Shown here in pieces: positions 10,142 through 27,123 of a DNA stretch of 64,000 bases. Both the position numbers and the translations under genes were made by a program. The stretch spans positions 1,489 to 65,488 of the forward strand of contig JAZTWW010000046.1 of NCBI GenBank assembly GCA_045636065.1, given 5' to 3'. This stretch comes from Kiritimatiellia bacterium (GTDB lineage: Bacteria; Verrucomicrobiota; Kiritimatiellia; RFP12; UBA1067). The first letter of the stretch is position 1; each line of letters starts with the position of its first letter. The notes under the pieces are model-generated. The model was not told where the DNA came from and made no database searches. It was given only the letters and a program-made list of their open reading frames with translations.

Positions 10142-10368
10142 CTTTTCTTCGACCTCTGAACTAGTGCCTCTATTGATTCGACGTTGGCGAAGTTCTCCGG
10201 CAGTATGTCCGTGCCATCGATCTTTATTGAAAAGCGCTCGTCAAGCGTAGAGACAAGCGTCATAAGGTCAAAGGAATCGAGCATCCCCTCGTCGAAGAAG
10301 TTCTCGACCCCCTCGAACTCGAATTCGGGACGGATCTCCTTCAGGATCTCTACAATCTGCTTCTGCAT
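10138..10368 (-). CDS. acyl carrier protein (DltC-like)
   Basis: 76 aa with GMLDSFDLMTLVSTL (serine attachment motif). Confidence 0.7.
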   Translation of the reverse strand: MQKQIVEILKEIRPEFEFEGVENFFDEGMLDSFDLMTLVSTLDERFSIKIDGTDILPENFANVESIEALVQRSKKR

Positions 10369-11210: not shown

Positions 11211-12732
11211 TAACCTGCCTATTCAGCAACGCGCGGTCGATCTTGCCAGTACCGCCACGAGGCAGCTCGGCAAGGCGACGGAAATCCGATGGAATCATGT
11301 ACTTCGGAAGTATCTGCCCTATTGCCTTGCGGAACTCCGCAGGGGTAATCTCGCGCTCACACTCGTAGAAGAACACTATAACCTTCTCCGCCTTGTTGTA
11401 CACGATGCAGCCATTCGGCACAAGCTTGAGCGTATTGATGATTACATGCTCTATCTCTCCCAGTTCTATCCGGTAGCCGGAGTGCTTTATGAGCGTATCC
11501 TTGCGTCCCTTGAACATGATCTCGCCGCGCTCGTTGCGTGAAACGATGTCACCGGTTCGATATATGATTTCTGGATAGGCCGTGTTAAGCGGATTCTGCG
11601 TGAACGCCGCCGCCGTCTTCTCCGGATTGTTATAATAGCCCATGGCCAGCGAAGTGCCGCGTACGCAAAGCTCGCCCTCTTCATCACACTGCGCGGGCCT
11701 GTCCTCGGAATTGAGAATAAGGATATCCGAATTGCGGCAGGGGAATCCGATTGGCAGTGGCTCATCGTCCCGGAAGTCGCGCGTAACCTCAAACCATGTG
11801 CAGTCGAGTGTGATTTCGATTGGCCCATATAGGTTGACAAACCGCGCCCACGGGAGATTGCGCTTCCAGACATTGAACTGCTTTGTCGGGAACACCTCCC
11901 CGGCGAACCACACCATCTTAAGGTCTGGAAGAGGCATCTTCTCAAGAAGCCCCATGTTCGCCATGTTGACCATGATCGTTGGCACCCAGAATATCCAAGA
12001 CACCCTCTCCTTCTTAAGAAGTTCAAGTATCTTGACCGGGAACATCGCCCAGCTGTCCGGAATGAGAACCATTGTCGCCCGCTTAGCGACCAAGAGGCAC
12101 AGTTCAAAACTGTATATGTCGAAAATGACTGGGGAAAGAGAGCCAACGACAAGTCCATCCTCCAACTGCCATGTCTCAAACGCGCACTCCATGAAATCGA
12201 AGAAGCTGCGATGGTTCAAGACTACACACTTGGGTGTCCCTGTAGAACCAGAGGTATTGATGAGGCAAAGCGGGTCGGTATCTATACCCTGTTCTATGAT
12301 TGCATTCAAGCGCCCGTCTGCACCATCCTGCAACTCTAGCCTGTCGAGGTCTTCCGTAAGGACAACAGGCACATCGCCAGCAATAGGCTCGATGATGCCA
12401 CGATACCTGGCGTTCGTGATGATTGCCAGTGGCTGCGCCTGCTTCAGCACATTAGCAAGACGCTCCGGCGGCGTCTTGACATCCATGTTCATGTATGCGT
12501 TCCCGGAATGGATGATGGCAAGGTCGGCCACAATTGTATGGATGCACTTTGGCAGAAACACCGCTACCGGGCGCCGTGTCGTCTTATATGTAGACGCGAG
12601 CCAATCGGCTATCTTGGACTCGGAAGCCCGGACCGCCAAAAATGTGGTGCTTTGGTCTCCATCCCTGACAGCTATAGCGTCAGGGTGTGCCTCTACCGTC
12701 GCAATAAAATCCTGTATGAGATTCGTTCTCAT
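11203..12732 (-). CDS. AMP-dependent synthetase/ligase (DltA-like adenylation enzyme, acyl-ACP ligase candidate)
   Basis: Adenylation motifs TSGSTGTPKCV (A3), YGPIE (A5), YRTGD (A7) and GRKDTLIKHSGYRIELGEIE (A8/A10). Stand-alone A domain next to ACPs. Confidence 0.85.
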   Translation of the reverse strand: MRTNLIQDFIATVEAHPDAIAVRDGDQSTTFLAVRASESKIADWLASTYKTTRRPVAVFLPKCIHTIVADLAIIHSGNAYMNMDVKTPPERLANVLKQAQPLAIITNARYRGIIEPIAGDVPVVLTEDLDRLELQDGADGRLNAIIEQGIDTDPLCLINTSGSTGTPKCVVLNHRSFFDFMECAFETWQLEDGLVVGSLSPVIFDIYSFELCLLVAKRATMVLIPDSWAMFPVKILELLKKERVSWIFWVPTIMVNMANMGLLEKMPLPDLKMVWFAGEVFPTKQFNVWKRNLPWARFVNLYGPIEITLDCTWFEVTRDFRDDEPLPIGFPCRNSDILILNSEDRPAQCDEEGELCVRGTSLAMGYYNNPEKTAAAFTQNPLNTAYPEIIYRTGDIVSRNERGEIMFKGRKDTLIKHSGYRIELGEIEHVIINTLKLVPNGCIVYNKAEKVIVFFYECEREITPAEFRKAIGQILPKYMIPSDFRRLAELPRGGTGKIDRALLNRQVNG

Positions 12733-13541
12733 TGATTCTCCACGTAGTTGAGTTTATTAAAGTTCGCCAATTCAATATCTTGCAGTTCGCATCTTTCCCT
12801 GCAAACAGAAAAACACTCTTCCGTGTCAATTCTACGCCACGGCTCGTCAACTCCAGGGTGGACACCTATTTCCGTCACGCCGTCAGGCAATGAATCGACG
12901 GCCTTTGAGAACCATTCCGGATCGCTGGTATGTCCAGCATTCATAAGGAAATGATCTGTCGTCTTGAATCCTGCCTTGTCAATGCGGTTCTGCATTGGCC
13001 CATTTATGACGCGCGACAAAAGACCCAACTTCCCTCCTACAACAGCCAAATCCTGGCACCGCCTGACCTTTGTGAACCCCAACTCTTCCTTCAACGCTGC
13101 CAAAGCTTTGAGGCTTTGAGGGAGCCTGTGGTTATGCCCATGTCCGTCTACATGAGAAATTGGAACCCCTGCATTCTTTAGCGCAAGATATTGCGCGCGC
13201 ATCTCTCGCTTGAGGTCTTCAACCTTTATCAACCCGGCAAAATTCCTCACAATGAACTTACGCGTCTGCCAAAGCCGTCCAGTAGACGGGTCGATCATAC
13301 TCGGTATCTCTTCCGGCCTGCACATCGGTATTTCATCGACCAGATAGAAATGCACCCCGAATGAAAACTGCTGGTGGGATTTGGCATATTCAACCGCCTT
13401 TGCAACAGCTGGCATTCCTGCCATGAGTGTTGCACTCGTTATGGCGCCACACTCAAATCCCCTAATCGTCCACTCAACTGTGTGATCACTCAGTCCAAAG
13501 TCATCTGCGTTTATAATTAACCGTCTCATAGACAGACTCAA
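12729..13541 (-). CDS. YdjC/ChbG-family carbohydrate deacetylase
   Basis: Hallmark N-terminus LIINADDFGLS and HxDGH region HVDGHGHNH. Confidence 0.8.
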   Translation of the reverse strand: MSLSMRRLIINADDFGLSDHTVEWTIRGFECGAITSATLMAGMPAVAKAVEYAKSHQQFSFGVHFYLVDEIPMCRPEEIPSMIDPSTGRLWQTRKFIVRNFAGLIKVEDLKREMRAQYLALKNAGVPISHVDGHGHNHRLPQSLKALAALKEELGFTKVRRCQDLAVVGGKLGLLSRVINGPMQNRIDKAGFKTTDHFLMNAGHTSDPEWFSKAVDSLPDGVTEIGVHPGVDEPWRRIDTEECFSVCRERCELQDIELANFNKLNYVENQ

Positions 13542-14284
13542 TCCATCGCAATCGCTTCTTCTTCCGTAAGCCTATGGGCAAAATATGGAGACTCTACATG
13601 CGGTATCATATCTGACCTGAAATTAGGATCATACTTTCGCCAAGGTCCATATTCATCATCAAGAATGGCCTCAGCATTTTCAGGGATGTCGACAGTGACA
13701 CCATGAACAACCATTTCTTTTATGCCCGTCGGCGCAGAAAATTGAAACTCCAATGCAGAATTGTCTCGCGGTGTTGGATAGTTGCGACCCTTAAACCAGC
13801 GCAAGTACCGAACTGTGAGCTTCTTTTGCGTATCATCCAGATACTCGCTCTGAAATACATCCATTGACAAATCAACCTTAGGGTCCATCACCGTAAACTC
13901 CAACATCCGCCCCTGAAACTTATAGGCATATACAAAACGATATCCTTCAGATAGAAATCCTCTTAGAGCATTGGCAAGCGAGCCGTATTCTGGCAAAACA
14001 GAGAAATCAAAATCGGCATCCCCTTTTATAAAACCACCATCACGAACAAAACCAAGCAACGTCCCCGCATCGCAATAATATGGTATGCGATGCTTCATGA
14101 ACACGGAATGTGCTCTCGCAAGGATATCATATCCGTGTTCACTCATCAGCTTCCTTGCCTTAGGCAGCCGATAACTTAGCCAAATCGGCTTGAGGATCTT
14201 AATGTACACTTTTTCCCCAAGCCACGTCTTCTTGAGGATATTTTTCAACAAGTCGTTGATTTGAAGTACAATTGGTTTCTTCAT
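13538..14284 (-). CDS. LicD-family phosphotransferase (phospho-alcohol transferase)
   Basis: LicD motif YYCDAGTLLGFVRDGGFIKGDADFDF. Confidence 0.8.
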   Translation of the reverse strand: MKKPIVLQINDLLKNILKKTWLGEKVYIKILKPIWLSYRLPKARKLMSEHGYDILARAHSVFMKHRIPYYCDAGTLLGFVRDGGFIKGDADFDFSVLPEYGSLANALRGFLSEGYRFVYAYKFQGRMLEFTVMDPKVDLSMDVFQSEYLDDTQKKLTVRYLRWFKGRNYPTPRDNSALEFQFSAPTGIKEMVVHGVTVDIPENAEAILDDEYGPWRKYDPNFRSDMIPHVESPYFAHRLTEEEAIAMD

Positions 14285-14286
14285 AG

Positions 14287-14718
14287 TTAAAGGTCTTTAA
14301 TTATTGCTTTCAAAACCGTAGTGGAAATCCCTTCCGTTCGTGGCAGGGTCACGACTTCCTTGCCATTCTCTCCACACCACATGAACAACTTCTGAAACCT
14401 CTCGTTCGTATGTTCAGGACCGACAACAAGAATGTCAAAGTCAACATCCTTAACTGCATCGACACCGACAACATCGTACGGTATCGCCTTATCAACAGTC
14501 CGCAGAGTTTCGATCATCTTCTGCCGCGTCGAGAAGTCATACACCCTCTTGCAGCCCTTCTTGTATTTCTCAATCATCTCATCTACCTGAAGCATCACAT
14601 AGATCTTGCCGCTCTCGCCGACGAGCTCTCTGATTCTCCTGAACAGCTCAAAATGCCCAAAGTGGAGCAAGTCAAAGACACCAAATGTAATGGCCGTCTT
14701 GCCATTGTAGTTACTCAT
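14287..14718 (-). CDS. cytidylyltransferase, TagD-like (CDP-alcohol-forming)
   Basis: 143 aa with an FGVFDLLHFGHF (HxGH) nucleotidyltransferase motif. Size matches glycerol-3-phosphate cytidylyltransferase. Confidence 0.8.
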   Translation of the reverse strand: MSNYNGKTAITFGVFDLLHFGHFELFRRIRELVGESGKIYVMLQVDEMIEKYKKGCKRVYDFSTRQKMIETLRTVDKAIPYDVVGVDAVKDVDFDILVVGPEHTNERFQKLFMWCGENGKEVVTLPRTEGISTTVLKAIIKDL

Positions 14719-15323
14719 TTATGCATTGCCTCCGTTATTGCATCATACAGCTCGTCATACTCCTCCAGTGCCACAACATCAGGATTCTCGGCTCTTATCT
14801 TCTCCGGAGCACGGAAGAGGAACCCCGCCTTTGACGCACGAATCATCTCAAGATCGTTGTAACCATCACCTGCGGCAATCGTCTCAACGCCCATACAAGA
14901 CTGCAATCCCCTTACCGTGTCGCGCTTGGTATGCGCCGAGCGGAGACTATACCCAATCATGTAACCATCGGCATCAACTTCCACGTCATTGTGAAATAGC
15001 GTTGGCCAACCCAACTTACGCATCAATGGACGACCAAAGATATCGAACGTATCGGAGACAACCACAACCTGACAAACCTCACGAAGCCGTGCGATAAACT
15101 CCCTTGCACCGTCGAACGGTTCGATAGTGTTGATTACCTCGACCACCTTATCGATTGTGAATCCGTATTTCCTCATAAGGTCAATGCGATAATGCATCAA
15201 CTTGTCGAAATCAGGCTCATCGCGTGTGGTACGCTTGAAATCTGGGATGCCCACTTTGTCGGCAAACGCAATCCAATTTTCAGGCGTCAATACCCCTTCC
15301 ATATCAAGACACACTATTGTCAT
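14715..15323 (-). CDS. HAD-family phosphoserine phosphatase / homoserine phosphotransferase (ThrH-like)
   Basis: MTIVCLDMEGVLTPENWIAFA...VVVSDTF...AAGDGYND resembles Pseudomonas ThrH (MEIACLDLEGVLVPEIWIAFA...). Comparison from memory. Confidence 0.7.
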   Translation of the reverse strand: MTIVCLDMEGVLTPENWIAFADKVGIPDFKRTTRDEPDFDKLMHYRIDLMRKYGFTIDKVVEVINTIEPFDGAREFIARLREVCQVVVVSDTFDIFGRPLMRKLGWPTLFHNDVEVDADGYMIGYSLRSAHTKRDTVRGLQSCMGVETIAAGDGYNDLEMIRASKAGFLFRAPEKIRAENPDVVALEEYDELYDAITEAMHK

Positions 15324-15333
15324 CGCCTTATCC

Positions 15334-16458
15334 TCATTTCCCTAAAAGTTCTTCATAGGAAATTTTCATTCCCGATGCAATGGCTGGCCATGAATATTTG
15401 CTCTCAACCAGTTTCCGGCCACGTTCCCCCATCGCATTTCTCTCTTCATCACTCAAGTCCGTTAACTCCCGCAAAGCGAGATCCATTTCATCCCAACTAC
15501 CCGTATTTCTTGGCATTTCGACGTGCCAACCGCATTTCTCTGTTTCCAATTCATGCCAAGGCGTACCCCTTGTCGTTATAGTCGGCAATCCTGCATACAA
15601 CGCCTCGGCGACAACGATCCCGAAATTCTCAGAATAACTCGGCAGAATAAATGCATCAGCTCGGCGATATGCTTTCCACTTCTCCTCGTCAGGTAATGCG
15701 CCCGTAAAAATTATACTGTCATCCAATTTTAGTTCCCTAACACGGGCAAGAACTTTATCTTCATAATCCTTTTCTGCTTTCTCCTTAGCCGTATAAACAA
15801 GTTCCAACTCCCATCCAACAGGCCGAACCCTCGCCCATGAGTCAACAAGATTCAACAAACCCTTCTTCTCGTGCATTCTGCTTAAAAATAACGCCCTACG
15901 CTTCCCATTAAGGTCCTTGATTCTCGGAGGCATCGTTTCAGGCACATTCACACCGTTGGGACTCATGATTATCTTTTGCATAAACCCCAGCCTGCGGCAC
16001 TGATCCATTTCACTTTTTGCCGTCACATGCAATGCTATTGCATGCGAAAGATCCCTCCCTTGGTATGTTAACAGTGCAAGCTTCTTCTTGAGCCATTTTT
16101 GACGTAACGACCAGACTTCCAATGTCCCTCTCGGTGCCAAAATATATGGGATGTTCCGTCGCCTAGCTTCAACCACTCCAAAATGCAGCATCAACTGCCA
16201 AATGCTATGTATATGAACTAAATCTGGCTTGACTTCATCCATAACCCGTCCAATGGCTTTAGACACTCCAAGCCACTTCATCTTACCTATGCATTGAAAA
16301 TGCACTACCCCCTTCACCCAGGGCACTCCCAAGGGTTTTATTGCAAGTAGATAAGTGTCAACTCCGACTTCCTGCAACCCAGAGACCAATCCCTGTACAC
16401 TCCTAGAGGGGCCTCCGCCTGTCCGGGAAATTGAGGATACTATATGCAAGACTTTCAT
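15334..16458 (-). CDS. glycosyltransferase family 4
   Basis: GT-B C-terminal motif ILPSYSENFGIVVAEALYAGLPTITT. Confidence 0.8.
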   Translation of the reverse strand: MKVLHIVSSISRTGGGPSRSVQGLVSGLQEVGVDTYLLAIKPLGVPWVKGVVHFQCIGKMKWLGVSKAIGRVMDEVKPDLVHIHSIWQLMLHFGVVEARRRNIPYILAPRGTLEVWSLRQKWLKKKLALLTYQGRDLSHAIALHVTAKSEMDQCRRLGFMQKIIMSPNGVNVPETMPPRIKDLNGKRRALFLSRMHEKKGLLNLVDSWARVRPVGWELELVYTAKEKAEKDYEDKVLARVRELKLDDSIIFTGALPDEEKWKAYRRADAFILPSYSENFGIVVAEALYAGLPTITTRGTPWHELETEKCGWHVEMPRNTGSWDEMDLALRELTDLSDEERNAMGERGRKLVESKYSWPAIASGMKISYEELLGK

Positions 16459-17411
16459 TTACTCAATCCGCTCAAATCAATATACGACCCCAATTCATAA
16501 TTGAATGATTGAGGATAAAAGGCATTGCAACCATTCCCACCGGTAAAAGTTAATTCGCCAAATACAATCCGCTTCCCACCAAGTACATATAGATCGACAC
16601 GGCACTGCGGGAAATCACATGCGAGTTTCTGTGCGACATAAATCATTTCGTCAAGACATTCTGGTTTCTTGACAACATCCGTTTCCTTGCATGGATGCAA
16701 ACTGCCGCGCCCTGGCATAAAGTTCCATTTCGCATCATATATATTACGATACCGCACTATCCCATCAACAATCTTTGGCTTGGAATAGCCGACCTCTTGC
16801 ACAATGGGCCGACTATTGGACAATGACTCTGTGAAATCAACCCAAATGTATTTGGTTACGCCCCTGAACGTAAAAAGTTTGTAATCCCTCAAAACTGGTG
16901 TTTCTGAATCAACCAAAAACTTCTCACAGATAATCTGCGGCTTTATTTCATGATACTGCCATTCGCGGCCCACCCTGGAAAAATCACTCCGCAACCATTT
17001 GCGCATTTTTTTCTTAGCCAGATTCCAATCAATCTTTGACTTGTCCGGACAGATAATATTCCAACCCGAACCATGCGTGGCCTTCAAGACAAATTGACCA
17101 GGCAAATCGGCAAATGGTATCATGTCTACATCATCGTATACGTCAATACACTCGGCAAGATACTTTTCTCCTATGCGATCTTTAACAAACTCCCGCACCG
17201 CCCACTTGTCTGCACACGTCACCATAACAGGATTTCGATAGTGCAATTTAAGCCACTGTAGCTTTTCATTGAAATCCATTGGCGGATCAAGGTGCAACCG
17301 CTTGCCTGTCATTACATTGTATTGGAAACGGATATATTGTTCATCAGAGAGCAGGTTCGTCAACCCACTTCTCCTTGCAACTGCCCAAGCCATTCTTTGA
17401 ATTCTGGACAT
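16455..17411 (-). CDS. TupA-like ATP-grasp amidoligase
   Basis: 318 aa ATP-grasp-like protein with NPVMVTCADKWAVREFV...FVLKATHGSGWN pattern typical of TupA-family proteins in polysaccharide loci. Confidence 0.65.
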   Translation of the reverse strand: MSRIQRMAWAVARRSGLTNLLSDEQYIRFQYNVMTGKRLHLDPPMDFNEKLQWLKLHYRNPVMVTCADKWAVREFVKDRIGEKYLAECIDVYDDVDMIPFADLPGQFVLKATHGSGWNIICPDKSKIDWNLAKKKMRKWLRSDFSRVGREWQYHEIKPQIICEKFLVDSETPVLRDYKLFTFRGVTKYIWVDFTESLSNSRPIVQEVGYSKPKIVDGIVRYRNIYDAKWNFMPGRGSLHPCKETDVVKKPECLDEMIYVAQKLACDFPQCRVDLYVLGGKRIVFGELTFTGGNGCNAFYPQSFNYELGSYIDLSGLSK

Positions 17412-18247
17412 CAGTTATAAATCTCCTTATAGTTGTGACCCTTATACTTTCTTGAATCAATATATGAACGTAGATATGCACCTGATACCAATCTTTGGAA
17501 GCGATTTATCCATTCAGATATCTTTCGAATTCTCTTGGTTGCTCCATAACGCAGATTAATCCTGTCGGCCTCATCTGTCGTCCGATTCTTGACATGATGC
17601 TCCGTTATCGTGCTTGCCGTTTTTGATTGTTCATGCAACCTAAAGCACCAAAGATATCTTTTCATTGTATGAAGACATATTCCCTTCTGCCAGAATCTTC
17701 GCCACAAATCCACATCCATCACATAATGAGCATCAACATCAAATCCACCAACCGACCTGAGGTTGTCTAGCAAAAAGACAGAACTTGGTCCGTTCACGGG
17801 AGATGCCGGGGCAAACCTCCCCAAAAATGGCCACACCCTCACACATCTTGAACATCTCCACACATTCAACTCGGCATCCCCATACACCGTACTCCCTGCG
17901 AGCCACTCGCACTTTGGATGGCTGTTCAAGTATTCAAGAATGGCTTTTATCGCTCCTGGCATTAATATGTCATCTGCATTAAGCCAGAAACCGTATCTTC
18001 CTCTCGCATGTGCAAAACCCTTGTTGAAAGCATCAGATTGTCCTTTGTCCTTTTCTGAGACCCACCATGCAATTGATCCTAAATGCTTCTTGATTACATC
18101 CGTAGAATTGTCTGCTGAGCCTCCATCAACAACAATTAATTCGCATAAATCGAAGCCATCCTGTTCGACAACCGACATGAGTGCCGTTTCAAGGAAGCGA
18201 CCATAGTTGTAATTTGCCACAATAATACTAATCAATGGTTGTATCAT
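17411..18247 (-). CDS. glycosyltransferase family 2
   Basis: Motifs ISIIVANYNYGRFLETAL, VVDGGSADNS and WLNADDILMPGA. Paralog of 2576-3331. Confidence 0.8.
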   Translation of the reverse strand: MIQPLISIIVANYNYGRFLETALMSVVEQDGFDLCELIVVDGGSADNSTDVIKKHLGSIAWWVSEKDKGQSDAFNKGFAHARGRYGFWLNADDILMPGAIKAILEYLNSHPKCEWLAGSTVYGDAELNVWRCSRCVRVWPFLGRFAPASPVNGPSSVFLLDNLRSVGGFDVDAHYVMDVDLWRRFWQKGICLHTMKRYLWCFRLHEQSKTASTITEHHVKNRTTDEADRINLRYGATKRIRKISEWINRFQRLVSGAYLRSYIDSRKYKGHNYKEIYN

Positions 18248-19469
18248 TTAACAAATCCTCATAAACCTTACGCATATTGATTGCATAATTTTCCCAAGTA
18301 TAATTCTCTTTCATCATCTTTGACGCATTTCGTCCGATCTCTTCGCGTTCATTTGGATGCTCTATAAGCCACTCGATCTTATCAGCAATGGCATTTGCAT
18401 TTTTCATAGGAACAACGCAGCCATTAATACCATCAGTGATTGGCAAACCACTTTGATATGTTGCTACAACTGGTAGCCCCGCAGTCAGAGCCTCCATACC
18501 GCTCTGTGCGCAACCATCGGCTAGAGAGGGGAAAAGATAACAATCTGCTCTAGCTAAGAAATCCTTTAACTCATCCTGCGGCTTTTGACCATGATAAACA
18601 ACTGGCAACTCTGCATATTTCTCAAGCAAGATTCTTGGTGCTTCTACTCTACCAACTATATCATATTCAACTTTCACACCCCTATCCACCAATACTTTCA
18701 GAGATTCCAAAATATATTCTGCTCCTTTCAACAGAATGAATCCACCTGTAAATAGAACACGAAATGTATCATTGCAACTATAATCATCCTTTAATCCTTG
18801 AAAGTCTTCACGTACCCCCAAGTAAACCACTCGAAGTTTAGAAGCTGGATACCCTTGTTGAATAAATGAATCGCGTATATGATATGCATTGACTACGATC
18901 ATATCAGCTTCATTACAATCCCTAATCACATTAGTCCATACACCCACATCTGGATCAATCGTAGGCTTAAGCCCATATTTAGCGCAGTCGTCCCACAAAT
19001 TCCTTTTACTAGCAGCCGGATGCAATGCACTGTGATCAACCAACACTTTCATACCATGTCGCTTAGCATACCTAATAGCGCCACCTTGTCCGGCACCACT
19101 CCGGACATGAAAAATCTCCCCGCCATGCAAATGACGCTTGCTATACCATCCAAAGAAACTCCAAATATACTTGTACAACTTTCTATAAACGCCATTGAAA
19201 CACCTATCTAAAATCAGCAACACTTGATTCAAAAATTCTGGCGCATAGCAACTGCATACTTTTATCTTCGCATCATGAATCTGCCTCTTTCTTATAGCAC
19301 CAGTCAACTTTTTCCCTCTCAAAAAGGCCAAGAAACGAAGAATCGCCGATTTTTCATTTGTCGGCACATAGCCACAAATAAAACTTAGATTGTCCACTTC
19401 CTTCGCAACACTCTGCGCCGACGAGACTAAATGCAAGGGTCCAATGCCGCATGATAGTATAACTTTCAT
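18228..19469 (-). CDS. glycosyltransferase family 4
   Basis: C-terminal YLFPSLADGCAQSGMEALTAGLPVVAT GT-B motif. Confidence 0.8.
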   Translation of the reverse strand: MKVILSCGIGPLHLVSSAQSVAKEVDNLSFICGYVPTNEKSAILRFLAFLRGKKLTGAIRKRQIHDAKIKVCSCYAPEFLNQVLLILDRCFNGVYRKLYKYIWSFFGWYSKRHLHGGEIFHVRSGAGQGGAIRYAKRHGMKVLVDHSALHPAASKRNLWDDCAKYGLKPTIDPDVGVWTNVIRDCNEADMIVVNAYHIRDSFIQQGYPASKLRVVYLGVREDFQGLKDDYSCNDTFRVLFTGGFILLKGAEYILESLKVLVDRGVKVEYDIVGRVEAPRILLEKYAELPVVYHGQKPQDELKDFLARADCYLFPSLADGCAQSGMEALTAGLPVVATYQSGLPITDGINGCVVPMKNANAIADKIEWLIEHPNEREEIGRNASKMMKENYTWENYAINMRKVYEDLLNDTTID

Positions 19470-19470
19470 T

Positions 19471-20796
19471 TTAACATCCTATAGCAAGATTATTAAAACG
19501 ACGACTATTGGCCTCCTTTTGAGATAGCAAGCAAAGTATTATTATCACTACCTCTGGAATGCGGTTTCCTGCAGGTGAAAACATAATGTCCCATACAAAA
19601 ATTGGTATGCCTAGCGATAAGTACCCGAACAACTCCGGTATCGCATCAAGATTTCTAATTAGGGTCTTGAGCAATAACGCCAGTACATATGCCCAAAACA
19701 ACAAACCGAACACTCCATGCCACATCCAATATGTCATCAAATGCGAATGCGCCGGAATCCTTTTACGAATCCCTGGATGATTTGTAAAAAATTGCAACGC
19801 TCTTGCATAATCTTCCGGAGCACCATACTTATTTAGAAATTCAAGGTAAAGACCATCATAATCTATTGCCCATGATCCCCTACCGACAATTGGATGCTGT
19901 GATGCGGCATATCCGCCAACAAAGAATTCTATTCGCCCTGCCATTATCATGTGCAAGGCTGAACTACTGCCCCTTGTTTGCATTTCATACTTCCTTTGCT
20001 CTTCCTCTCCAAGGCACCCTTTCGTAACGGCATATTGATATAAATACTTGGCTCCCAACATCACACACAGCAATGCCATCCCTATAAAAATAAAATGCCT
20101 TTTTATAAATCTCCCTCCCTTCTTTGATTGTTTCCCAAAATAGACCAACACCAAGGATACTGCAAGGGCGAGGAATCCAGATCTAGCACCTATATACAAT
20201 GAATACGCAGCCACTCCAGCAATTGACAATATGCAATATAAATAAGGTGTAGAAACAAACCAAGCACGAACGGGCAATAAGACGAAATGATCAATTAGAC
20301 CTTTCCAATACAACTTATAAGCAATCGTCTTGTCTATAGCTTGTTCAAGCGACAATTCATCGTCAACAGAAGAAGCTCGCTGGAAAAGAAACGTAGAAAG
20401 CACATACGATAATGCGCATCCTAAAATAAACCATCTTGTCGCCTTTACATTTCTCCTTAAAAGATGATATAAGCATATCACATTACACAAATACACGACA
20501 GGAGTTGCGACACCCTTTAATGAAAATATTAAGTTGATTCCATTATATATATCTGCAAAAACAGCCCCTAAAAACCACAGCAACAGCAACGATATCAAAG
20601 TTATAATACCATCACGCCGAAAATTTGGCATCTCTCGCGTTACAACAAATGGTGTCGCGCAGATAAAAGCCAGCTCTGTAATCGCTAAACTTCCTCCGAT
20701 GCTGATACGTGCCATAGAAAAAAGCCCAACCCAGAACAAAAGAACAGCGTTTTGACGCTCATCCCTTATCGAATACATTTTCTGATTATCAATCAT
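19471..20796 (-). CDS. Wzy-like O-antigen/polysaccharide polymerase (O-antigen ligase family membrane protein)
   Basis: 441 aa, about 10 predicted TM helices with a large loop. Positioned between a GT and the Wzx flippase. Confidence 0.55.
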   Translation of the reverse strand: MIDNQKMYSIRDERQNAVLLFWVGLFSMARISIGGSLAITELAFICATPFVVTREMPNFRRDGIITLISLLLLWFLGAVFADIYNGINLIFSLKGVATPVVYLCNVICLYHLLRRNVKATRWFILGCALSYVLSTFLFQRASSVDDELSLEQAIDKTIAYKLYWKGLIDHFVLLPVRAWFVSTPYLYCILSIAGVAAYSLYIGARSGFLALAVSLVLVYFGKQSKKGGRFIKRHFIFIGMALLCVMLGAKYLYQYAVTKGCLGEEEQRKYEMQTRGSSSALHMIMAGRIEFFVGGYAASQHPIVGRGSWAIDYDGLYLEFLNKYGAPEDYARALQFFTNHPGIRKRIPAHSHLMTYWMWHGVFGLLFWAYVLALLLKTLIRNLDAIPELFGYLSLGIPIFVWDIMFSPAGNRIPEVVIIILCLLSQKEANSRRFNNLAIGC

Positions 20797-20867
20797 TTCT
20801 ACCGTATCTTTCAGACGCTTTATAACAACCTAACATGTGCCTTCAGGACACCTCAGAATCCTTGCTA

Positions 20868-22427
20868 CTAGGATGCCATCAATCTCTTAATATACATTTT
20901 TACCTTAAGAGTTAAATACAACCTATCGTCCGTATCAAAGAGAAAATTCCATGCAGAAATAAACATCACAGAAATCGAACAAAAAGACAAAACCACTAAT
21001 CTCACAAACGACTGAGCCATGACTGTCTGTAGAAAAAGCCCAGAAACAATCCCTACAATCGAAATACAACACAATGGCAAAACGACAAATCTAAGCCAGT
21101 ATCTTGCGCTTAATCCAGTATACAATCTTGCGACAAATACATCTGACAAGCATGCTAAGACTGTTGTAATTATCAATGCAATGCAAACCATGTATGGTTG
21201 TCTACAAATTAAGATCGTCACCATGGACAAAGGAATCGCCGTAAGACACGCAGTTCCCCTGAATAATTGGAACCAAGCGACCTTGCCAACAGCTCGGACC
21301 GCCTGCCCCTGACCAAGTGACAACTTTTCCAAGACAACAACGACAAGCCAACAAAGGCATAGAGATTCTGCATGTTCGGGGGGATTTTTAAGCCATACCT
21401 TCAACACTTCTGAAATCTCAAGGCCTATAGGAACCGCAAAAACCATCGTTAACAACGTCCCGAATTTACTCGCAGTATATGCTAGTTTTGTCATACGTTT
21501 CATATTTCCTTCGCCGTAAGCAGTTGTCACCGCTGGACCAAACGCCCCATTCAGTGCACCTGTTAAGGCAGCCGCCTCTCCCCCTACTGTCGATCCTACA
21601 GTATAAGCTGCGTTTACCTTTGGCCCGAATATCTTATTAACAATAATTTCAAGACACTGATGACGCGCAAGATAACCTATTCCTCCAAAAGCCTGCCACC
21701 AAGCATAGCTAGCCAACTGCTTAATTTTTTTTAAGTTCATTATCGAAGACAGAACCATTCTGCATTCAGGAAAAACTTTGAGTGCACGAACACAAATTAC
21801 CATTTGCGGCACAATAGCAATAATGCACATTGCACACCCATACCCCAACAACCAATCCCTTTCAATAGTAGTCATATAATAAACAAAACCAGTTCTGAAA
21901 AGGACCTGCGTTAAGCTATATGCCGTTAGCTCAGCTATATACTGTTTTGCAGTAAACATAGCCTGAAAAGGGACATTGATCATGCTTATAAAACAGGAAA
22001 TCATGGAGAAACGCCAAAGCCAAAGACATGTTTCAATTCTAGATGCTGGTATTGTGAGCCAGCCGGTGGTTATCGCCATTTTCCCTAACGGATAGCCAAG
22101 AGCAACCAGAAAAAGTGGAAGAATCGTATGAATCATAACACCTGTAGTAAACCATTCACGACATTCAGATATTGCTCTCGTTTTATCTGTTGTAGCGTTC
22201 GCCTTTCCGATTGAGTAAGCGTAAAATCTACTTAACGCTGCACTAAATTGGATATTTATGAAGCTTACAAATAGCACAAGGCTTCCTACAACGCCAAACA
22301 ACCCAAACTTCTCGTGCCCTAAGGCCATCAAAACCCACCTTGTAGAGAAAATACCGCACAATACGCCTACAAGTGTTCTTCCGTAAGTTGCAAGAACATT
22401 AACAACTATTCTCTGATTTGGGGACAT
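20868..22427 (-). CDS. Wzx-type oligosaccharide flippase (MOP superfamily)
   Basis: 519 aa with 12-14 TM helices and polysaccharide-biosynthesis-protein topology. Confidence 0.75.
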   Translation of the reverse strand: MSPNQRIVVNVLATYGRTLVGVLCGIFSTRWVLMALGHEKFGLFGVVGSLVLFVSFINIQFSAALSRFYAYSIGKANATTDKTRAISECREWFTTGVMIHTILPLFLVALGYPLGKMAITTGWLTIPASRIETCLWLWRFSMISCFISMINVPFQAMFTAKQYIAELTAYSLTQVLFRTGFVYYMTTIERDWLLGYGCAMCIIAIVPQMVICVRALKVFPECRMVLSSIMNLKKIKQLASYAWWQAFGGIGYLARHQCLEIIVNKIFGPKVNAAYTVGSTVGGEAAALTGALNGAFGPAVTTAYGEGNMKRMTKLAYTASKFGTLLTMVFAVPIGLEISEVLKVWLKNPPEHAESLCLCWLVVVVLEKLSLGQGQAVRAVGKVAWFQLFRGTACLTAIPLSMVTILICRQPYMVCIALIITTVLACLSDVFVARLYTGLSARYWLRFVVLPLCCISIVGIVSGLFLQTVMAQSFVRLVVLSFCSISVMFISAWNFLFDTDDRLYLTLKVKMYIKRLMAS

Positions 22428-22443
22428 GCTAACCTTGGAATGT

Positions 22444-23151
22444 CTAACCTCTTGCCAAAAAACTCAACCATTCATCCTTATTGCGACTTAAATACCATTT
22501 ATGGTTCGAGTAGTCCTTATAAAACATTGGCGCCATAGTGCTTTCCCATTGAACAACAGGCGTCTTCCAATCGCCGTAAAGCTTCTCTAAAACAACTTCA
22601 TAGTTATCAGGCACAAACGTTGTCACCCCATGAATAGATAGAGTTGCCAAGTTTTTAGGTATTGGCCAATAAAAAACTGGCCAGTAAATGTTCTTTTTAT
22701 CCGTGATATGGCATATTGATCTTCTGTCATCGTCAAAATGCAATTGAAAAAAATCTATGCTTACCTCTTTGTATCGCATTGAGAACTCGTGTAATTTATT
22801 GTCAAGCAACAAGAATCTTTCAAAAACAAACCCCTCATTCTCCAAAGACTCAAAAAAAGGTTTTACTTTCCCATTTTCGGGCATCATCGCAAAATCTATA
22901 TCCTCATCGTGTGGAATAAAGCCACCGTCTCGCACAAATCCCAACAAAGTGCCAAAAGCAGCATGATATGGCATAGAGACGCTCACAGCCACTTTGTATA
23001 TCCTCTCGACAGCTTCATAACCGTAACGCCGGATAAGGCGACGTTTAATCTTCAACACATGTACAGCAAACCATCTAACAAATGGATACAACAGCCTTTT
23101 GAGAATAGCATTTTCTCGTAACTTTATCCGCAAGTTCCTTAAAACGTCCAT
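22444..23151 (-). CDS. LicD-family phosphotransferase
   Basis: LicD motif AAFGTLLGFVRDGGFIPHDEDIDF. Confidence 0.8.
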   Translation of the reverse strand: MDVLRNLRIKLRENAILKRLLYPFVRWFAVHVLKIKRRLIRRYGYEAVERIYKVAVSVSMPYHAAFGTLLGFVRDGGFIPHDEDIDFAMMPENGKVKPFFESLENEGFVFERFLLLDNKLHEFSMRYKEVSIDFFQLHFDDDRRSICHITDKKNIYWPVFYWPIPKNLATLSIHGVTTFVPDNYEVVLEKLYGDWKTPVVQWESTMAPMFYKDYSNHKWYLSRNKDEWLSFLARG

Positions 23152-23167
23152 GTTAAGGTTCTTTCAA

Positions 23168-24031
23168 TTAGACATGGTTATATGCCCTGTGAAACAAATG
23201 CTCAGGTATTCGACTTTCTGGAGGTGGAAGTTCTCGCCAATTACCAAACAACTGCGTCAAATACAACTCCGCCATCGATGGAACAGATATACTTCCATCT
23301 TCAAATGGCACGACACGTCCTTCACCAAACATCCCCTTAGCAAATATTCTGTCTGTACGCATTTTAAAAAAGGCAAATTCAGCCACAGACTTACTTGTAG
23401 CATAAGGCCATCGCATAGCATATGTATCATATAATTCCATCATGGCATCATTATCAGCAGTCCGTGGATAAAGCCATGAAACAAAAAATCCAAGTATCCG
23501 ACATGCTGCATATACAAATGGCCGACTCTTGCCAGTCGCCTCTTTCGTAACTGTTGAACTATTCGGAAATCTATATAATTGGCATAAACGTAATGCACGT
23601 CGTCCGAGCCACCATTTTTTGATATCGCAAATTGACGTAGGTAGCCCATCCAAAATGAATATATCAATGGACGGCTCTCGATCCGTATCAATTCTTGTCG
23701 CTTGTCGCAATTTATCAAGGAGTCCACTCTCAAAATTCAATATTTTCCCGAAATATATAGACGACCGTCTTTCTACGCCACCTCGAATAAAACGCATATT
23801 TTTAGGTAATTCGTCATTAATGATTGCAACAAGTTTATTAAAGTCTTCTCGCGGCATTGCAACGTCAAAATCATCATCCCACGGTATAAAACCCTTGTGT
23901 CGAATTGCACCCAAAGCTGTGCCTCCAATTGCAAAATACAAAAGATTATGCTTTTGGCAAATTCTAGAATATTCGTGGAATATTTTTAATACTTCCAGCT
24001 GATACGGTCTCAAATCCCAACTTGGCATCAT
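23168..24031 (-). CDS. LicD-family phosphotransferase
   Basis: LicD motif AIGGTALGAIRHKGFIPWDDDFDV. Confidence 0.75.
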   Translation of the reverse strand: MMPSWDLRPYQLEVLKIFHEYSRICQKHNLLYFAIGGTALGAIRHKGFIPWDDDFDVAMPREDFNKLVAIINDELPKNMRFIRGGVERRSSIYFGKILNFESGLLDKLRQATRIDTDREPSIDIFILDGLPTSICDIKKWWLGRRALRLCQLYRFPNSSTVTKEATGKSRPFVYAACRILGFFVSWLYPRTADNDAMMELYDTYAMRWPYATSKSVAEFAFFKMRTDRIFAKGMFGEGRVVPFEDGSISVPSMAELYLTQLFGNWRELPPPESRIPEHLFHRAYNHV

Positions 24032-24037
24032 CTTCTC

Positions 24038-25390
24038 CTAAATGAGATATTGCCGCGCACATGTCAGCAATCGGAGTAGATTTTTAGAATTATCAGAAGT
24101 CCAAGCACTGCTTGAACTTTCTTGTTTTTGAATATTATTAATAAGATCTGCTAGTTCATAACGCAATCCATCTCCGACAAAAGAACAAAACACGCGTCTT
24201 GTTGTCTGTCCCATATCATTTCTAACCTCAAAATATTCGGTTTTCCACCAAGGGCTTGGAACATAAATATAACCAGTCGTTCCCGCCACAGTCAAGGCTC
24301 CCTCTGACTTTGCAGACAAGCCTACCGTGAAGATTCCTGTCGCGGAGGGATACTTGATCATACCCGTCGCAAAGGACTCAACGCGATCACTTGGGTCACG
24401 AAGCGGATGAATCGTCATTTGTGATGGGTCAGCCGGACCGAGCAACTTGATAATCGGACAGAGTACATACGAGGCAAGTTCAGATATCGCGCCACCACCC
24501 ATTGCCGGATCGTACTCACGAAGTGTCTTATCGAGCGTTAACTTAGTAAAGACGGCGTTCACTTGGCGAATCTTGCCAATCACGCCCCCCTTCGCCAAGT
24601 TGACAAGCCGTTTGAAGCATGGGGCAAAGGCTGTCTTAAGAGCCTCCTGAAGAACAACACCGTTTTTCGACGCCAAGGCATAGAGATCCTTTGCTTCTTC
24701 ATAGTCAAGCGTCAATGGTTTCTCGCACAGGACATGCTTCTTTGCCGTTAGCGCCTTACGCACATAGTCGGCATGGAATGGATGCGGTGTGGCAACATAG
24801 ACGACATCGACAGATTGCAACATCACGTCAAAATCTGAATATGCATCCTTAATCGAATGCTTCGCGGCAAACTCATCTGCGAGATTTCGCATTGGATTGC
24901 ATACGGCATCAAACACGATGCCTGACACAAATCGACTTTCGACGATAAACCGATTGGCTATTCTCCCACAGCCGACGATCCCACCGCGGAGAATGTGCCG
25001 CGAATCATTTCGGATCATTGTCGAGCTAATGCCCTTCGTTCGCGGCAGATAAACCACTTCGCACCATTCTTTCAGATAATCATACTTTCCGAGCCAGTCG
25101 TCGCCAATGACAAAAACATCTATGCCGTAGCGCTGTACGTCTTCAATCTTCTGCCCCTCATATTCTTCAACAAATATTACGTCTGCCATCCCACTATCCT
25201 TGACTTGCCCCATCCGTTCGATGAGACTTTGCACAACATTCAGCTTGCCGCGCTCACGATCGTAATTTTCGCTTGTGACCCCAACGAAGAGCTTCCCGCC
25301 CGTACCGCAATACATTCGTGCTCTTTCCAGAATGCGGCGATGCCCATCATGAAAGAAATCAAATGTTCCGTATGTTATCACATTAGCCAT
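24038..25390 (-). CDS. bifunctional TagD-like cytidylyltransferase / Gfo-Idh-MocA oxidoreductase fusion
   Basis: N-terminus ITYGTFDFFHDGH (HxGH CTase) followed by a Rossmann GIVGCGRIANRF and Gfo/Idh/MocA dehydrogenase body. ATG at 25390 with AAGGAG SD; ORF-track TTG start at 25408. Confidence 0.75.
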   Translation of the reverse strand: MANVITYGTFDFFHDGHRRILERARMYCGTGGKLFVGVTSENYDRERGKLNVVQSLIERMGQVKDSGMADVIFVEEYEGQKIEDVQRYGIDVFVIGDDWLGKYDYLKEWCEVVYLPRTKGISSTMIRNDSRHILRGGIVGCGRIANRFIVESRFVSGIVFDAVCNPMRNLADEFAAKHSIKDAYSDFDVMLQSVDVVYVATPHPFHADYVRKALTAKKHVLCEKPLTLDYEEAKDLYALASKNGVVLQEALKTAFAPCFKRLVNLAKGGVIGKIRQVNAVFTKLTLDKTLREYDPAMGGGAISELASYVLCPIIKLLGPADPSQMTIHPLRDPSDRVESFATGMIKYPSATGIFTVGLSAKSEGALTVAGTTGYIYVPSPWWKTEYFEVRNDMGQTTRRVFCSFVGDGLRYELADLINNIQKQESSSSAWTSDNSKNLLRLLTCARQYLI

Positions 25391-25881: not shown

Positions 25882-26580
25882 TCATTTGGCATTGTTTTTG
25901 AGTTTTTCAACCAACACAAATGATGCCAAGAATTCTGAATACTTTATCACGAAGCGCAAATACTGCCATAAGAATGCTAATGATATCATAATGTTCAATA
26001 TCACAGCCACGACTACACATGGCCAAGATGAGCCTGATTCCACAAGTATCACGACAATTGGAAGCAGTGCGAAAACTGATGTCATAAAAAGCACTCTGTT
26101 CAGGCCATAATACGCCATGTAATTCATGCCAGCAGGCGGTTCTCCTCCAAAGCGTGCTTGAGCAATGAGTCGCAATTCCCTCCGAGAATCCTCGCATGGC
26201 CTATAACCGAAAATATGTTCAAATGTCTCATACATGGCCTTTGCTTTATCGCGTATTGAGGATGGAATCTCCGTCTCAGGATTCATTGCATCAATTACGC
26301 CTGCGAATGGGTGTTTCATTCGTGATAGGTGCTTTCTAGCAAATGTATGCTCAACCAGCAAACTCGAAAGCGCATTGGCTAGATGACCCGCTATGTAACC
26401 AAGAATGACAACAACAAAATACGACCACTTTGATGCCTCCATCCAAGAAAACAGTACTTGCGCCTTACCTGGGCAAAAGGCGTACAAGTAAAGCAACCCC
26501 ACACCAAGGAAGGCAAAGCCAGACACCCAATAGCAAAACAAATCGTAAAATGTCGCTCTATTTGATAGTGTGCTAGACAT
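25882..26580 (-). CDS. hypothetical 4-TM membrane protein
   Basis: 232 aa with two N-terminal and two C-terminal hydrophobic helices flanking an ~80-aa soluble loop. No recognisable family. Confidence 0.45.
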   Translation of the reverse strand: MSSTLSNRATFYDLFCYWVSGFAFLGVGLLYLYAFCPGKAQVLFSWMEASKWSYFVVVILGYIAGHLANALSSLLVEHTFARKHLSRMKHPFAGVIDAMNPETEIPSSIRDKAKAMYETFEHIFGYRPCEDSRRELRLIAQARFGGEPPAGMNYMAYYGLNRVLFMTSVFALLPIVVILVESGSSWPCVVVAVILNIMISLAFLWQYLRFVIKYSEFLASFVLVEKLKNNAK

Positions 26581-26598
26581 ATCTACTTTTTTTTATCG

Positions 26599-27123
26599 CT
26601 AATCGCACAAACAAGAAATCGTTGGAATTCCGTACGCAATAATCAGTTTTTCAACCAAAAGCACCGGATTATCCGGTGAGAACACACGCTGCATCAAGGT
26701 CTGCCCATCAAGTTCGATATTGAATCGCGACTGCACCTTAGCTTTGACTGCATTATTGACTTCCTTAAATGCACTCAAAACAGCATCTGCATATTGACGC
26801 GACTTCATACGCGACTCGGCCACACGCCATACTGCAGGATGAGATATACCTTCTGTGCCGTAAAAATCTTGAGATGCCATCATTCGCAATGACATTAACT
26901 TCTTTATAATTGCATTTGCATCCTCAACGTTCATTCGCTGATTTGATCTCGTTGGCAAATGTGCTACGCGCACATCACGAACTTCATTTTCAAGCGAATG
27001 CCAAACCGCAAACGCCAACAACTTATCAGCAAGCTCCGACACCTCCGGTGTATCACCGTCCACACGATGCTTGCTGTACAACTCTAAAACCCGCAAAATT
27101 AAATCATCTATCTCATCAACCAT
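26599..27123 (-). CDS. hypothetical protein (possible N-terminal part of a TIGR02391-like protein)
   Basis: 174 aa. C-terminal YADAVLSAFKEVNNAVKAKV...GQTLMQRVFSPDNPVL resembles the first half of that family (memory-based). Confidence 0.4.
   Translation of the reverse strand: MVDEIDDLILRVLELYSKHRVDGDTPEVSELADKLLAFAVWHSLENEVRDVRVAHLPTRSNQRMNVEDANAIIKKLMSLRMMASQDFYGTEGISHPAVWRVAESRMKSRQYADAVLSAFKEVNNAVKAKVQSRFNIELDGQTLMQRVFSPDNPVLLVEKLIIAYGIPTISCLCD

Follow-up and report, generated by a model that had tools for sequence, protein, structure and literature searches.

Two putative routes to CDP-alcohols in a Kiritimatiellae polysaccharide locus: a cytidylyltransferase–reductase fusion and a ThrH-type HAD–cytidylyltransferase pair

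Introduction

How does a bacterium supply the activated alcohols with which a surface glycan is decorated, and does a locus encoding several of the enzymes involved do so by one route or by two? Headgroups linked through phosphodiesters, such as phosphocholine and glycerol-, ribitol- or ethanolamine-phosphate, shape the immune recognition of surface glycans and the specificity of phages and antibodies. The question is raised by a polysaccharide locus of a Kiritimatiellia bacterium (GenBank assembly GCA_045636065.1, contig JAZTWW010000046.1), of which a stretch of 64,000 nt was analyzed (positions 1,489 to 65,488 of the forward strand; from here: the window, to which all coordinates refer unless a related locus is named). 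At positions 13538–25390 it contains 12 genes, all on the minus strand and separated by tiny gaps or joined by overlapping stop and start codons. They encode three LicD-family proteins (LicD-a, LicD-b and LicD-c), a haloacid dehalogenase-family (HAD) protein of the ThrH type, a free cytidylyltransferase and a second cytidylyltransferase that is fused to a Gfo/Idh/MocA (GFO) reductase. Six related functions fall inside 12 kb with E-values of 1e-9 to 1e-74, which is far past chance.

In the preliminary description of this DNA these genes had been taken for one integrated, teichoic-acid-like toolkit. The component enzymes stand, and CDP-activated phospho-alcohols moved by LicD proteins to a repeat-unit polysaccharide are still the best reading that the sequences allow. 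The single toolkit does not stand: it is on balance probable that the locus carries two independent cassettes, each of which would make a CDP-alcohol and attach the alcohol-phosphate to the repeat unit in phosphodiester linkage. Cassette A would consist of the HAD, the free cytidylyltransferase and LicD-a, and cassette B of the fusion, LicD-c and LicD-b. The identity of each transferred alcohol is a tentative assignment, somewhat more apt to be wrong than right.

A functional precedent exists in Streptococcus pneumoniae, where the CDP-2-glycerol pathway for glycerol-2-phosphate (Gro-2-P) comprises gtp1 (dehydrogenase/reductase), gtp2 (nucleotidyl transferase), gtp3 (phosphotransferase) and wchX (glycerol phosphotransferase); these genes are located next to wzx in the pneumococcal capsule serogroups 15, 23 and 28. 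This pathway was reportedly described by Wang et al. in 2010 (J Bacteriol 192:5506). Gtp1, Gtp2, Gtp3 and WchX may belong to the GFO, PF01467, ThrH-HAD and LicD families, respectively.

Results

The cytidylyltransferase–reductase fusion

Family memberships were called from Pfam and NCBIfam scores above the curated cut-offs, except for the Wzy-like protein and the putative flippase. By these calls, a TagD-like cytidylyltransferase (residues ~1–130) is connected through a short linker to a GFO reductase (residues ~135–450) in the first protein of the locus. The fusion scored 60.1 bits for PF01467 (gathering threshold 21), 89.5 bits for PF01408 and 39.6 bits for PF22725, and neither PF01128 nor an alcohol dehydrogenase (ADH) or short-chain dehydrogenase/reductase (SDR) domain was matched in it by Pfam and NCBIfam. 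Its real start is the ATG at 25390, as the 100%-identical protein at NCBI has 450 aa and the homologues start with MxxVITYGTFD; the mechanically called open reading frame (ORF), beginning with TTG, reaches 25408. Public labels of the protein are "Gfo/Idh/MocA family oxidoreductase", "glycerol-3-phosphate cytidylyltransferase" and "adenylyltransferase/cytidyltransferase family protein".

The fused cytidylyltransferase carries the signatures HDGH and RTKGISST. Positions H14/G16/H17, R117/T118/S122/S123, E223-K224-P225, E304 and Y308 were invariant over 62 aligned homologues, and the HxGH, RTxGISST, EKP and E-x3-Y motifs were unchanged across the fusion homologues. Because the catalytic motifs are invariant in both domains, both halves of the fusion are under selection.

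Among solved structures, the fusion matched TagD (1coz, 94.7 bits) and dimeric dihydrodiol dehydrogenase (2o48, 105 bits), and none was found that spans both domains. A two-domain AlphaFold2 model reached a pLDDT of 93.3 and a pTM of 0.84, and this high pTM suggests a fixed arrangement of the two modelled domains. When the GFO part was searched with Foldseek, target-normalised TM-scores to GFO structures were 0.85–0.90; the closest structures were uncharacterised GFO proteins and dimeric dihydrodiol dehydrogenase, with 1,5-anhydrofructose reductase and KijD10 also among the near matches. The fused cytidylyltransferase scored 86.5 bits on the TagD equivalog model TIGR01518, under the cut-off of 165.4.

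A sequencing or assembly frameshift that joins two genes would produce such an ORF, and the preliminary description had named this outcome as fatal to its proposal. Nothing was found in favour of such an artefact, its probability is vanishingly small and we dismiss it: besides the identical NCBI protein, PF01467 and PF01408 occurred together in 118 of the best 120 clusters formed at 90% identity, and tblastn alignments ran continuously over both domains in 80 of 80 related loci, at identities of 46–79%.

Spread and genomic partners of the fusion

Relatives of the fusion were detected in 271 GTDB species of about ten phyla, with one genome scanned per species. The best 80 of these 271 relatives, which are the 80 loci just mentioned, were analyzed together with 10 kb on either side. 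Their hosts comprise Kiritimatiellae, Akkermansia, Gastranaerophilales, (rumen) Alphaproteobacteria, many Actinomycetota, Bacillota, Bacteroidota, Thermosipho, Treponema, Fusobacteriaceae and one archaeon (Methanobrevibacter). The genes that directly flank the fusion (n = 121 scanned) encoded TagF-like CDP-glycerol glycerophosphotransferases of PF04464 in 30 cases, LicD proteins in 14, IspD-like proteins in 5 and CDP-alcohol phosphatidyltransferases (CDP-OH_P_transf) in 4. Within 10 kb, TagF-like genes were present in 45 loci, LicD genes in 17 and CDP-OH_P_transf genes in 12, and 63 of the 80 loci had at least one of them; these counts were obtained with locally built profile hidden Markov models (phmmer hits, hmmbuild, hmmsearch). 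A neighbour cluster of 58 loci obtained by single-linkage BLAST was dropped as a count of TagF-like genes, since fusions between GT2 glycosyltransferases and TagF join unrelated GT2 proteins in it. In 32 of the loci with a TagF-like gene, the fusion was the sole nearby cytidylyltransferase, with no other and no IspD-like one, and an IspD/TarI-like cytidylyltransferase was also present in 16 of the 80 fusion loci. The sugar genes that flank the fusion vary widely and a constant NDP-sugar partner was not evident. A ThrH-like gene was present within 10 kb of the fusion in none of the 80 loci.

The closest sampled relative (L111, fusion 86% identical) has the order fusion, 283-aa LicD, GT2, 518-aa membrane protein and, further on, Wzy, GT4 and GT2; thus, the adjacency of fusion and LicD and the downstream order of the window are kept there. 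The partner of a 77%-identical relative is TagF-like instead of LicD, and an 80%-identical relative has neither of the two inside 10 kb. On the megaplasmid pRUMAL01 of Ruminococcus albus 7 (L103, 8037–13807) the fusion stands in the order LicD, class-V aminotransferase, fusion, LicD, GNAT-type acetyltransferase (GNAT), LicD; this was also the only full-length match of the fusion in the plasmid database.

Judged from these sequences, the fusion has the appearance of an uncharacterised CDP-alcohol synthase that is complete in itself. Its product would most likely be a glycerol-type CDP-alcohol, our first guess in view of the TagD-like cytidylyltransferase domain and of TagF-like proteins as the commonest partners. 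With TagD/TarD of wall teichoic acid synthesis it shares, like the free cytidylyltransferase, the fold and the HxGH and RTxGISST motifs, and its homologues usually stand beside PF04464 genes as TagD/TarD do with TagF/TagB. Unlike in those systems, the scores are far under the equivalog cut-off, a reductase is attached and the partners in the window are LicD proteins.

The combination of a reductase and a cytidylyltransferase to yield a CDP-polyol is also that of TarI/TarJ and of Bcs1 from Haemophilus influenzae, Bcs1 being likewise one fused polypeptide. The preliminary description had suggested this logic, built from non-homologous domains, and at the family level it was right: the fusion consists of PF01467 and GFO domains, whereas in Bcs1 and TarI/TarJ an IspD-like PF01128 cytidylyltransferase is combined with an SDR or a medium-chain dehydrogenase/reductase (MDR). 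The two-step logic is found again in Mnp1/Mnp2 (CDP-mannitol, S. pneumoniae) and HS5.18/HS5.17 (CDP-6-D-glucitol, Campylobacter jejuni), in which activation of the keto-sugar phosphate can come before reduction of the CDP-ketose; these, however, are separate PF01128 and PF01370 proteins that act on hexose phosphates. By its sequence, the fusion differs at the family level from every characterised CDP-alditol synthase compared here. It had been called unusual and undescribed, of which the second part holds: no paper on a TagD–GFO fusion was found in a full-text literature search, and the fusion is widespread but unstudied, not rare.

The ThrH-type HAD and the free cytidylyltransferase

On the ThrH model NF010109 (cut-off 133) the HAD scored 248.2 bits, and on the stricter ThrH model TIGR02137 it scored 202.1 bits, which is below the cut-off of 223.4. 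On the SerB model TIGR00338 it remained at 66.4 bits (cut-off 144.15). It matched ThrH of Pseudomonas aeruginosa (1RKU) with 180 bits and 47% identity over 192 residues, compared with 42 bits for the best SerB-type structure. An ordinary SerB phosphatase, which the preliminary description had named as the alternative to its ThrH call, is thereby ruled out. The HAD has the length of P. aeruginosa ThrH (1RKU/1RKV) and keeps the catalytic motifs DxE...SDT...GDxxND. It differs from that enzyme in its place in a polysaccharide operon, in its coupling to a cytidylyltransferase, in its score under the TIGR02137 cut-off and in two clade-specific substitutions within otherwise conserved motifs (PEIW to PENW and GDS to GDG).

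The ThrH family is small, with 178 clusters (50% clustering, E ≤ 1e-30) among 1.84 billion representatives. All of the best 120 database clusters were at least 90% identical to the HAD of the window. It is thus more conserved than the core protein topoisomerase IV subunit A (ParC, 34482–36617), for which two clusters exceeded 80% and most relatives lay at 72–76%; such conservation is compatible with horizontal exchange of the cassette and likewise with an unusually strong constraint. In every context sampled, the HAD gene lay within a polysaccharide locus or on the margin of one, and ThrH homologues from the plasmid database stood in non-polysaccharide contexts.

The free cytidylyltransferase has the signatures HFGH and RTEGISTT and is 30% identical to the fused domain. 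Its best structural matches were TarD (2b7l, 67.7 bits) and TagD (1coz, 58.6 bits), ahead of the ethanolamine- and choline-phosphate enzymes, so that both cytidylyltransferases of the locus are nearest to glycerol-3-phosphate cytidylyltransferases among solved structures. It scored 61.2 bits on TIGR01518, and only TagD-level matches to it were found in the plasmid database.

The stop codon of the HAD gene overlaps the start codon of the cytidylyltransferase gene in the window (14715–14718), in the related loci L087–L102 and in L113; this translational coupling was present in four of six sampled clusters in addition to the window. In the related metagenome contigs L087, L097 and L101 the HAD is 92–93% and the cytidylyltransferase 86–92% identical to that of the window, whereas the following LicD is 43–68%, the first GT4-type enzyme (GT4a) 31–57% and the surrounding glycosyltransferases 30–78% identical. 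Conserved HAD and cytidylyltransferase genes beside a variable LicD gene are the pattern expected of shared donor-synthesis genes next to acceptor-specific transferases. In L113 the place of the LicD behind the pair is taken by a protein of the Asp/Glu/hydantoin-racemase family and a weakly TagF-like one (both at 4539–6562; the TagF-like match with 23.2 bits, cut-off 22.1); the TagF-like protein suggests that here, too, the pair yields a CDP-alcohol donor.

In related loci, the 6–10 kb of flank read on each side of the pair contained no GFO match, which indicates that cassette A is independent of the fusion. A single integrated pathway like that of Gtp1–3, extending over both cassettes, was considered and is ruled out by this result and by the lack of ThrH-like genes within 10 kb of the fusion in the 80 loci.

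A further cassette was observed in L101 and L102 (1291–3595), with a class-V aminotransferase, a 157-aa cytidylyltransferase and a 255-aa LicD. Together with the arrangement in R. albus, such aminotransferase- or GNAT-bearing cassettes hint at aminated or N-acetylated headgroups.

LicD-family and assembly proteins

All three LicD proteins passed the PF04991 gathering score of 22.6, as the preliminary description had led us to expect, and the full model (positions 1–227) was covered by LicD-c only. LicD-a and LicD-b (235–248 aa) are divergent short forms that match the N-terminal part of the model only. The GT(L/A)LG...DxDxD motif reads DAGTLLG...DADFD in LicD-a, AFGTLLG...DEDID in LicD-b and GGTALG...DDDFD in LicD-c. 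LicD-a and LicD-b are 31% identical over 232 aa and LicD-c resembles them only near the GT.LG/DxD region; three proteins so diverged fit different donor/acceptor pairs. With the LicD phosphocholine transferase, the ribitol-phosphate transferases fukutin and fukutin-related protein (FKRP) and Mycoplasma Mf1 they share PF04991 and the DxD motif. LicD-c matched the catalytic region of FKRP weakly, and all three matched the Mf1 model weakly.

A Wzx/Wzy-dependent polymer had been predicted as well, and candidates for both proteins are present by position and hydropathy; the profile evidence stops short of the assignment. The 441-aa Wzy-like protein scored 29.7 bits on Wzy_C, just under the cut-off of 31.7, and 17 bits on TIGR04370, and has ~9 hydrophobic segments. 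The 519-aa membrane protein in the flippase position yielded no Pfam and no meaningful NCBIfam match; ~12 hydrophobic segments were counted in it by a simple hydropathy scan, and it is 33–40% identical to a 514–524-aa protein that has the corresponding place after the HAD or the fusion in related loci. The TupA-like ATP-grasp protein, 78% identical in L087 and L097 and without an NCBIfam match, may add an amino-acid or similar substituent.

Discussion

From the observed family memberships, intact catalytic motifs, operon packing and conserved partnerships we infer substrates, order of steps, acceptor sugars and export route as follows. In cassette B, the fusion would convert a keto- or aldo-triose phosphate, or another small sugar phosphate, with NAD(P)H and CTP to a CDP-alcohol. 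Either the phosphate ester would be reduced and then activated, as by TarJ and TarI, or the keto-phosphate would be activated before the CDP-ketose is reduced, as by Mnp1/Mnp2 and HS5.18/HS5.17. The donor, most likely of the CDP-glycerol type, would be used by LicD-c and/or LicD-b. In cassette A, the HAD would move a phosphoryl group from a phospho-donor (phosphoserine in the case of ThrH) via an aspartyl-phosphate intermediate to a free alcohol, the coupled cytidylyltransferase would form the CDP-alcohol and LicD-a would transfer the alcohol-phosphate to the repeat unit. By analogy, the likeliest candidate for this alcohol is glycerol, phosphorylated at C2; glycerol comes first because of the pneumococcal Gtp3/Gtp2/WchX precedent for glycerol-2-phosphate. 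The GT2 and GT4 enzymes would build the decorated unit, and the Wzx-like and Wzy-like proteins would probably export and polymerise it.

All four functions of the Gtp1–3/WchX pathway, i.e. reductase, cytidylyltransferase, phosphotransferase and a glycerol-phosphate or LicD transferase, are represented in the window by predicted enzymes. Unlike in the pneumococcal system, the window has its reductase joined to one cytidylyltransferase and its phosphotransferase coupled to another, the two halves are independent, and the host is a Kiritimatiellae bacterium. The flanking ParC gene has its nearest relatives in metagenome-assembled genomes of Kiritimatiellae, which places the host in the PVC group (Planctomycetes, Verrucomicrobia, Chlamydiae). 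We assume that this host is diderm, and on this assumption the product would be a capsule, O-antigen or extracellular polysaccharide with phosphodiester substituents and not a wall teichoic acid. The recruitment of ThrH had been put forward as new. Recruitment of a phosphotransferase as such has its functional precedent in gtp3; no paper linking ThrH with LicD was found in a full-text literature search. Streptococcal names were absent from ten low-G+C representatives of the ThrH family (drawn from the 178 clusters).

Several observations weigh against the proposed scheme. Glycerol as the substrate of the fusion is a guess, because the structures nearest to the GFO domain belong to uncharacterised proteins and to a dihydrodiol/xylose dehydrogenase of broad specificity. 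Bacteria already make sn-glycerol-3-phosphate, which leaves a dedicated reductase unexplained unless another isomer or another alcohol is formed, and both cytidylyltransferases score well under the TagD equivalog cut-off. For cassette A, the racemase-family neighbour in L113 fits an amino-acid-like headgroup better than the achiral glycerol-2-phosphate. In two of the six sampled HAD clusters the gene has no adjoining cytidylyltransferase and directly precedes a 517–524-aa membrane protein, and ThrH homologues of 43–53% identity (Lachnospira, Pusillibacter, Acinetobacter, Deefgea) stand in amino-acid or sulfur-metabolism contexts, so that the HAD could be a housekeeping enzyme. The Wzx and Wzy assignments are weak, and an initiating phosphoglycosyl transferase was not seen in the examined part of the operon.

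Each cassette has therefore to be weighed against other explanations. The fusion might make a different CDP-alditol (CDP-ribitol, -erythritol, -arabinitol or a hexitol derivative), with its GFO domain in the role of TarJ, AbpB or Mnp2. GFO enzymes typically act on sugars or cyclitols, and 1,5-anhydrofructose reductase and the NDP-sugar ketoreductase KijD10 are among the nearest structures; moreover, the PF04464 TagF family includes ribitol-phosphate polymerases, and many hosts of the fusion belong to the Actinomycetota, a phylum reported to have varied polyol-phosphate wall polymers. We still consider another alditol unlikely, given that the fused cytidylyltransferase is closest to TagD, that PF01128 enzymes serve all the characterised CDP-alditol routes compared, and that the IspD/TarI-like enzymes in 16 of the 80 loci suggest a separate synthesis of CDP-ribitol-type donors there. 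Less probable again is that the two domains work on unrelated substrates, for instance in CDP-glycerol synthesis and NDP-sugar oxidoreduction, and were fused for co-expression only. NDP-sugar GFO enzymes are common in polysaccharide loci and matches of the KijD10 type do occur, yet the fusion has been maintained over about ten phyla with invariant catalytic positions in both domains, 32 TagF-like genes have no other cytidylyltransferase near them, its pTM is high and no constant NDP-sugar partner is evident. A glycerol-type CDP-alcohol made by both domains in concert thus remains our preference for cassette B.

With regard to cassette A, the HAD might be the housekeeping phosphoserine phosphatase of this clade, or a conserved anchor at a recombination hot spot, and the free cytidylyltransferase might use a phospho-alcohol of central metabolism (e.g. 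sn-glycerol-3-phosphate, as TagD does). The identity of at least 90% in the best 120 clusters, compared with mostly 72–76% for ParC, the solitary HAD genes in two of the six clusters and the homologues in housekeeping contexts agree with this idea; from the latter the HAD of the window is no further diverged than they are from one another. Its place within or on the margin of a polysaccharide locus in all contexts sampled, its coupling, in the window and in four of six clusters, to a cytidylyltransferase that is conserved to the same degree, the variable low-G+C island as an untypical site for a core biosynthetic gene, and the PENW and GDG substitutions make it an improbable explanation. We give similarly little credence to the idea that cassette A installs a phospho-amino acid or phospho-amino-alcohol (e.g. 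O-phospho-homoserine or a serine-derived group) via a CDP intermediate, by the phosphoserine:homoserine phosphotransferase chemistry of ThrH. It would account for the HAD passing one of the two curated ThrH models with 47% identity to P. aeruginosa ThrH and its catalytic motifs kept, for the racemase-family gene in L113, which suggests a chiral amino- or carboxy-acid substrate, and for the aminotransferase cassettes of related loci and R. albus, by which nitrogenous headgroups seem to be in play. Against it, the cytidylyltransferase is nearest to glycerol-phosphate enzymes, ahead of those for ethanolamine- and choline-phosphate, and the racemase association was present in one of six contexts. 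We also know of no documented CDP-amino-acid donor or phospho-homoserine substituent of a glycan. For cassette A, too, we prefer a CDP-alcohol with glycerol-2-phosphate as the first candidate.

A bolder combination would have the fusion carry out by itself an undescribed conversion of a triose phosphate, or another small carbonyl phosphate, to a CDP-alcohol, perhaps of a glycerol-phosphate isomer that bacterial central metabolism does not supply; this donor would serve the TagF-like, LicD and CDP-alcohol transferases of hundreds of species. The HAD pair would in addition activate a non-glycerol headgroup such as a homoserine- or serine-type phospho-amino acid. That both parts hold together is doubtful. 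If they did, the Kiritimatiellae would possess a CDP-donor and a glycan substituent so far unknown from any organism. If the assignments given above hold, two enzyme sets come into view, the fusion in at least 271 species and the ThrH-like/cytidylyltransferase pair in Kiritimatiellae, and a biochemical study of either was not found. Knowledge of both products would improve the annotation of many polysaccharide and teichoic-acid-like loci and could reveal a new CDP-donor.

Locus layout and neighbouring genes

The 12 genes are listed in Table 1. Abutting or overlapping genes at 14715–14718, 13538–13541, 16455–16458, 17411 and 18228–18247 indicate one operon, as expected. Starting at 25390, it extends along the minus strand as far as position 483 or beyond (at least 25 kb), the region described here being its 5' half, and the downstream part contains more glycosyltransferases and a carrier-protein module.

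Table 1 Genes of the polysaccharide locus, with coordinates in the window and the supporting profile or property
Gene product	Position	Strand	Evidence and remarks
Fusion, 450 aa, cytidylyltransferase and Gfo/Idh/MocA reductase	24038–25390	-	Pfam; first gene of the locus
LicD-c, 287 aa	23168–24031	-	PF04991, 115.9 bits
LicD-b, 235 aa, short-type	22444–23151	-	PF04991, 45.3 bits
Polytopic membrane protein, 519 aa, putative Wzx-like, flippase position	20868–22427	-	Hydropathy and position
Candidate Wzy-like polymerase/ligase, 441 aa	19471–20796	-	PF04932 Wzy_C, 29.7 bits (cut-off 31.7)
GT4-type glycosyltransferase (GT4b)	18228–19469	-	PF00534, 75 bits; PF13692, 75.3 bits
GT2 glycosyltransferase	17411–18247	-	PF00535, 80.6 bits
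TupA-like ATP-grasp protein	16455–17411	-	PF14305, 169.6 bits
GT4-type glycosyltransferase (GT4a)	15334–16458	-	PF00534, 85.9 bits
ThrH-type HAD, 202 aa	14715–15323	-	NF010109, 248 bits; first gene of cassette A
Free cytidylyltransferase, 143 aa	14287–14718	-	PF01467, 58 bits; cassette A
LicD-a, 248 aa, short-type	13538–14284	-	PF04991, 39 bits; transferase of cassette A

The G+C content is 40–50% across 2–32 kb, compared with 60–65% in the remainder of the window (36000–64000), and GC skew is strongly negative over the operon, which varies between strains. The low-G+C stretch fits a horizontally exchanged, variable island, and the locus itself is an ordinary variable cluster of the capsule or O-antigen type. 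RNA elements were not detected by Rfam in positions 1–32000 of the window.

The carrier-protein module (5966–13541, minus strand) lies directly downstream of LicD-a. It comprises genes for a YdjC-like protein (12729–13541), a DltA-like adenylation enzyme (11203–12732), a GNAT-like protein (10368–11210), two PP-binding carriers of 75–76 aa (10138–10368 and 8832–9059), two FabH-like β-ketoacyl-ACP synthases III (KASIII; 9062–10141 and 6941–8083) and two FabG-like SDRs (8080–8829 and 5966–6721). A 370-aa protein of unassigned family (4847–5959) is encoded with them. Counterparts of the module were not found in the related loci L087, L097 and L101, save a weak YdjC match (27%) in L097. Its gene content suggests synthesis of an acyl or aminoacyl substituent within the locus. 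Further downstream, a 662-bp gap between glycosyltransferase genes of the operon contains the gene of a 100-aa DUF4160 protein and, overlapping it, an ORF of 90 aa (3404–3938, minus strand), which look like a small inserted two-gene element.

Upstream of the fusion, at 25882–28657 on the minus strand, a 232-aa membrane-like protein without an assigned family, a Hypoth_Ymh protein (26599–27123), an AbiEii toxin (27672–28289) and its DUF6922 partner (28244–28657) are encoded. L107 and L108 have a pair of 174-aa and 209-aa ORFs upstream of the fusion, without tblastn similarity to the upstream pair of the window. Defence islands adjoin such polysaccharide loci in relatives: in L081–L085 (~3600–6250; in L085 ~2550–5150) the solitary HAD gene stands just downstream of an island resembling cyclic oligonucleotide-based anti-phage signalling systems (CBASS), with TIR-STING and a CD-NTase-like protein, and in L113 GmrSD and AAA-ATPase defence genes are followed by the HAD–cytidylyltransferase pair.

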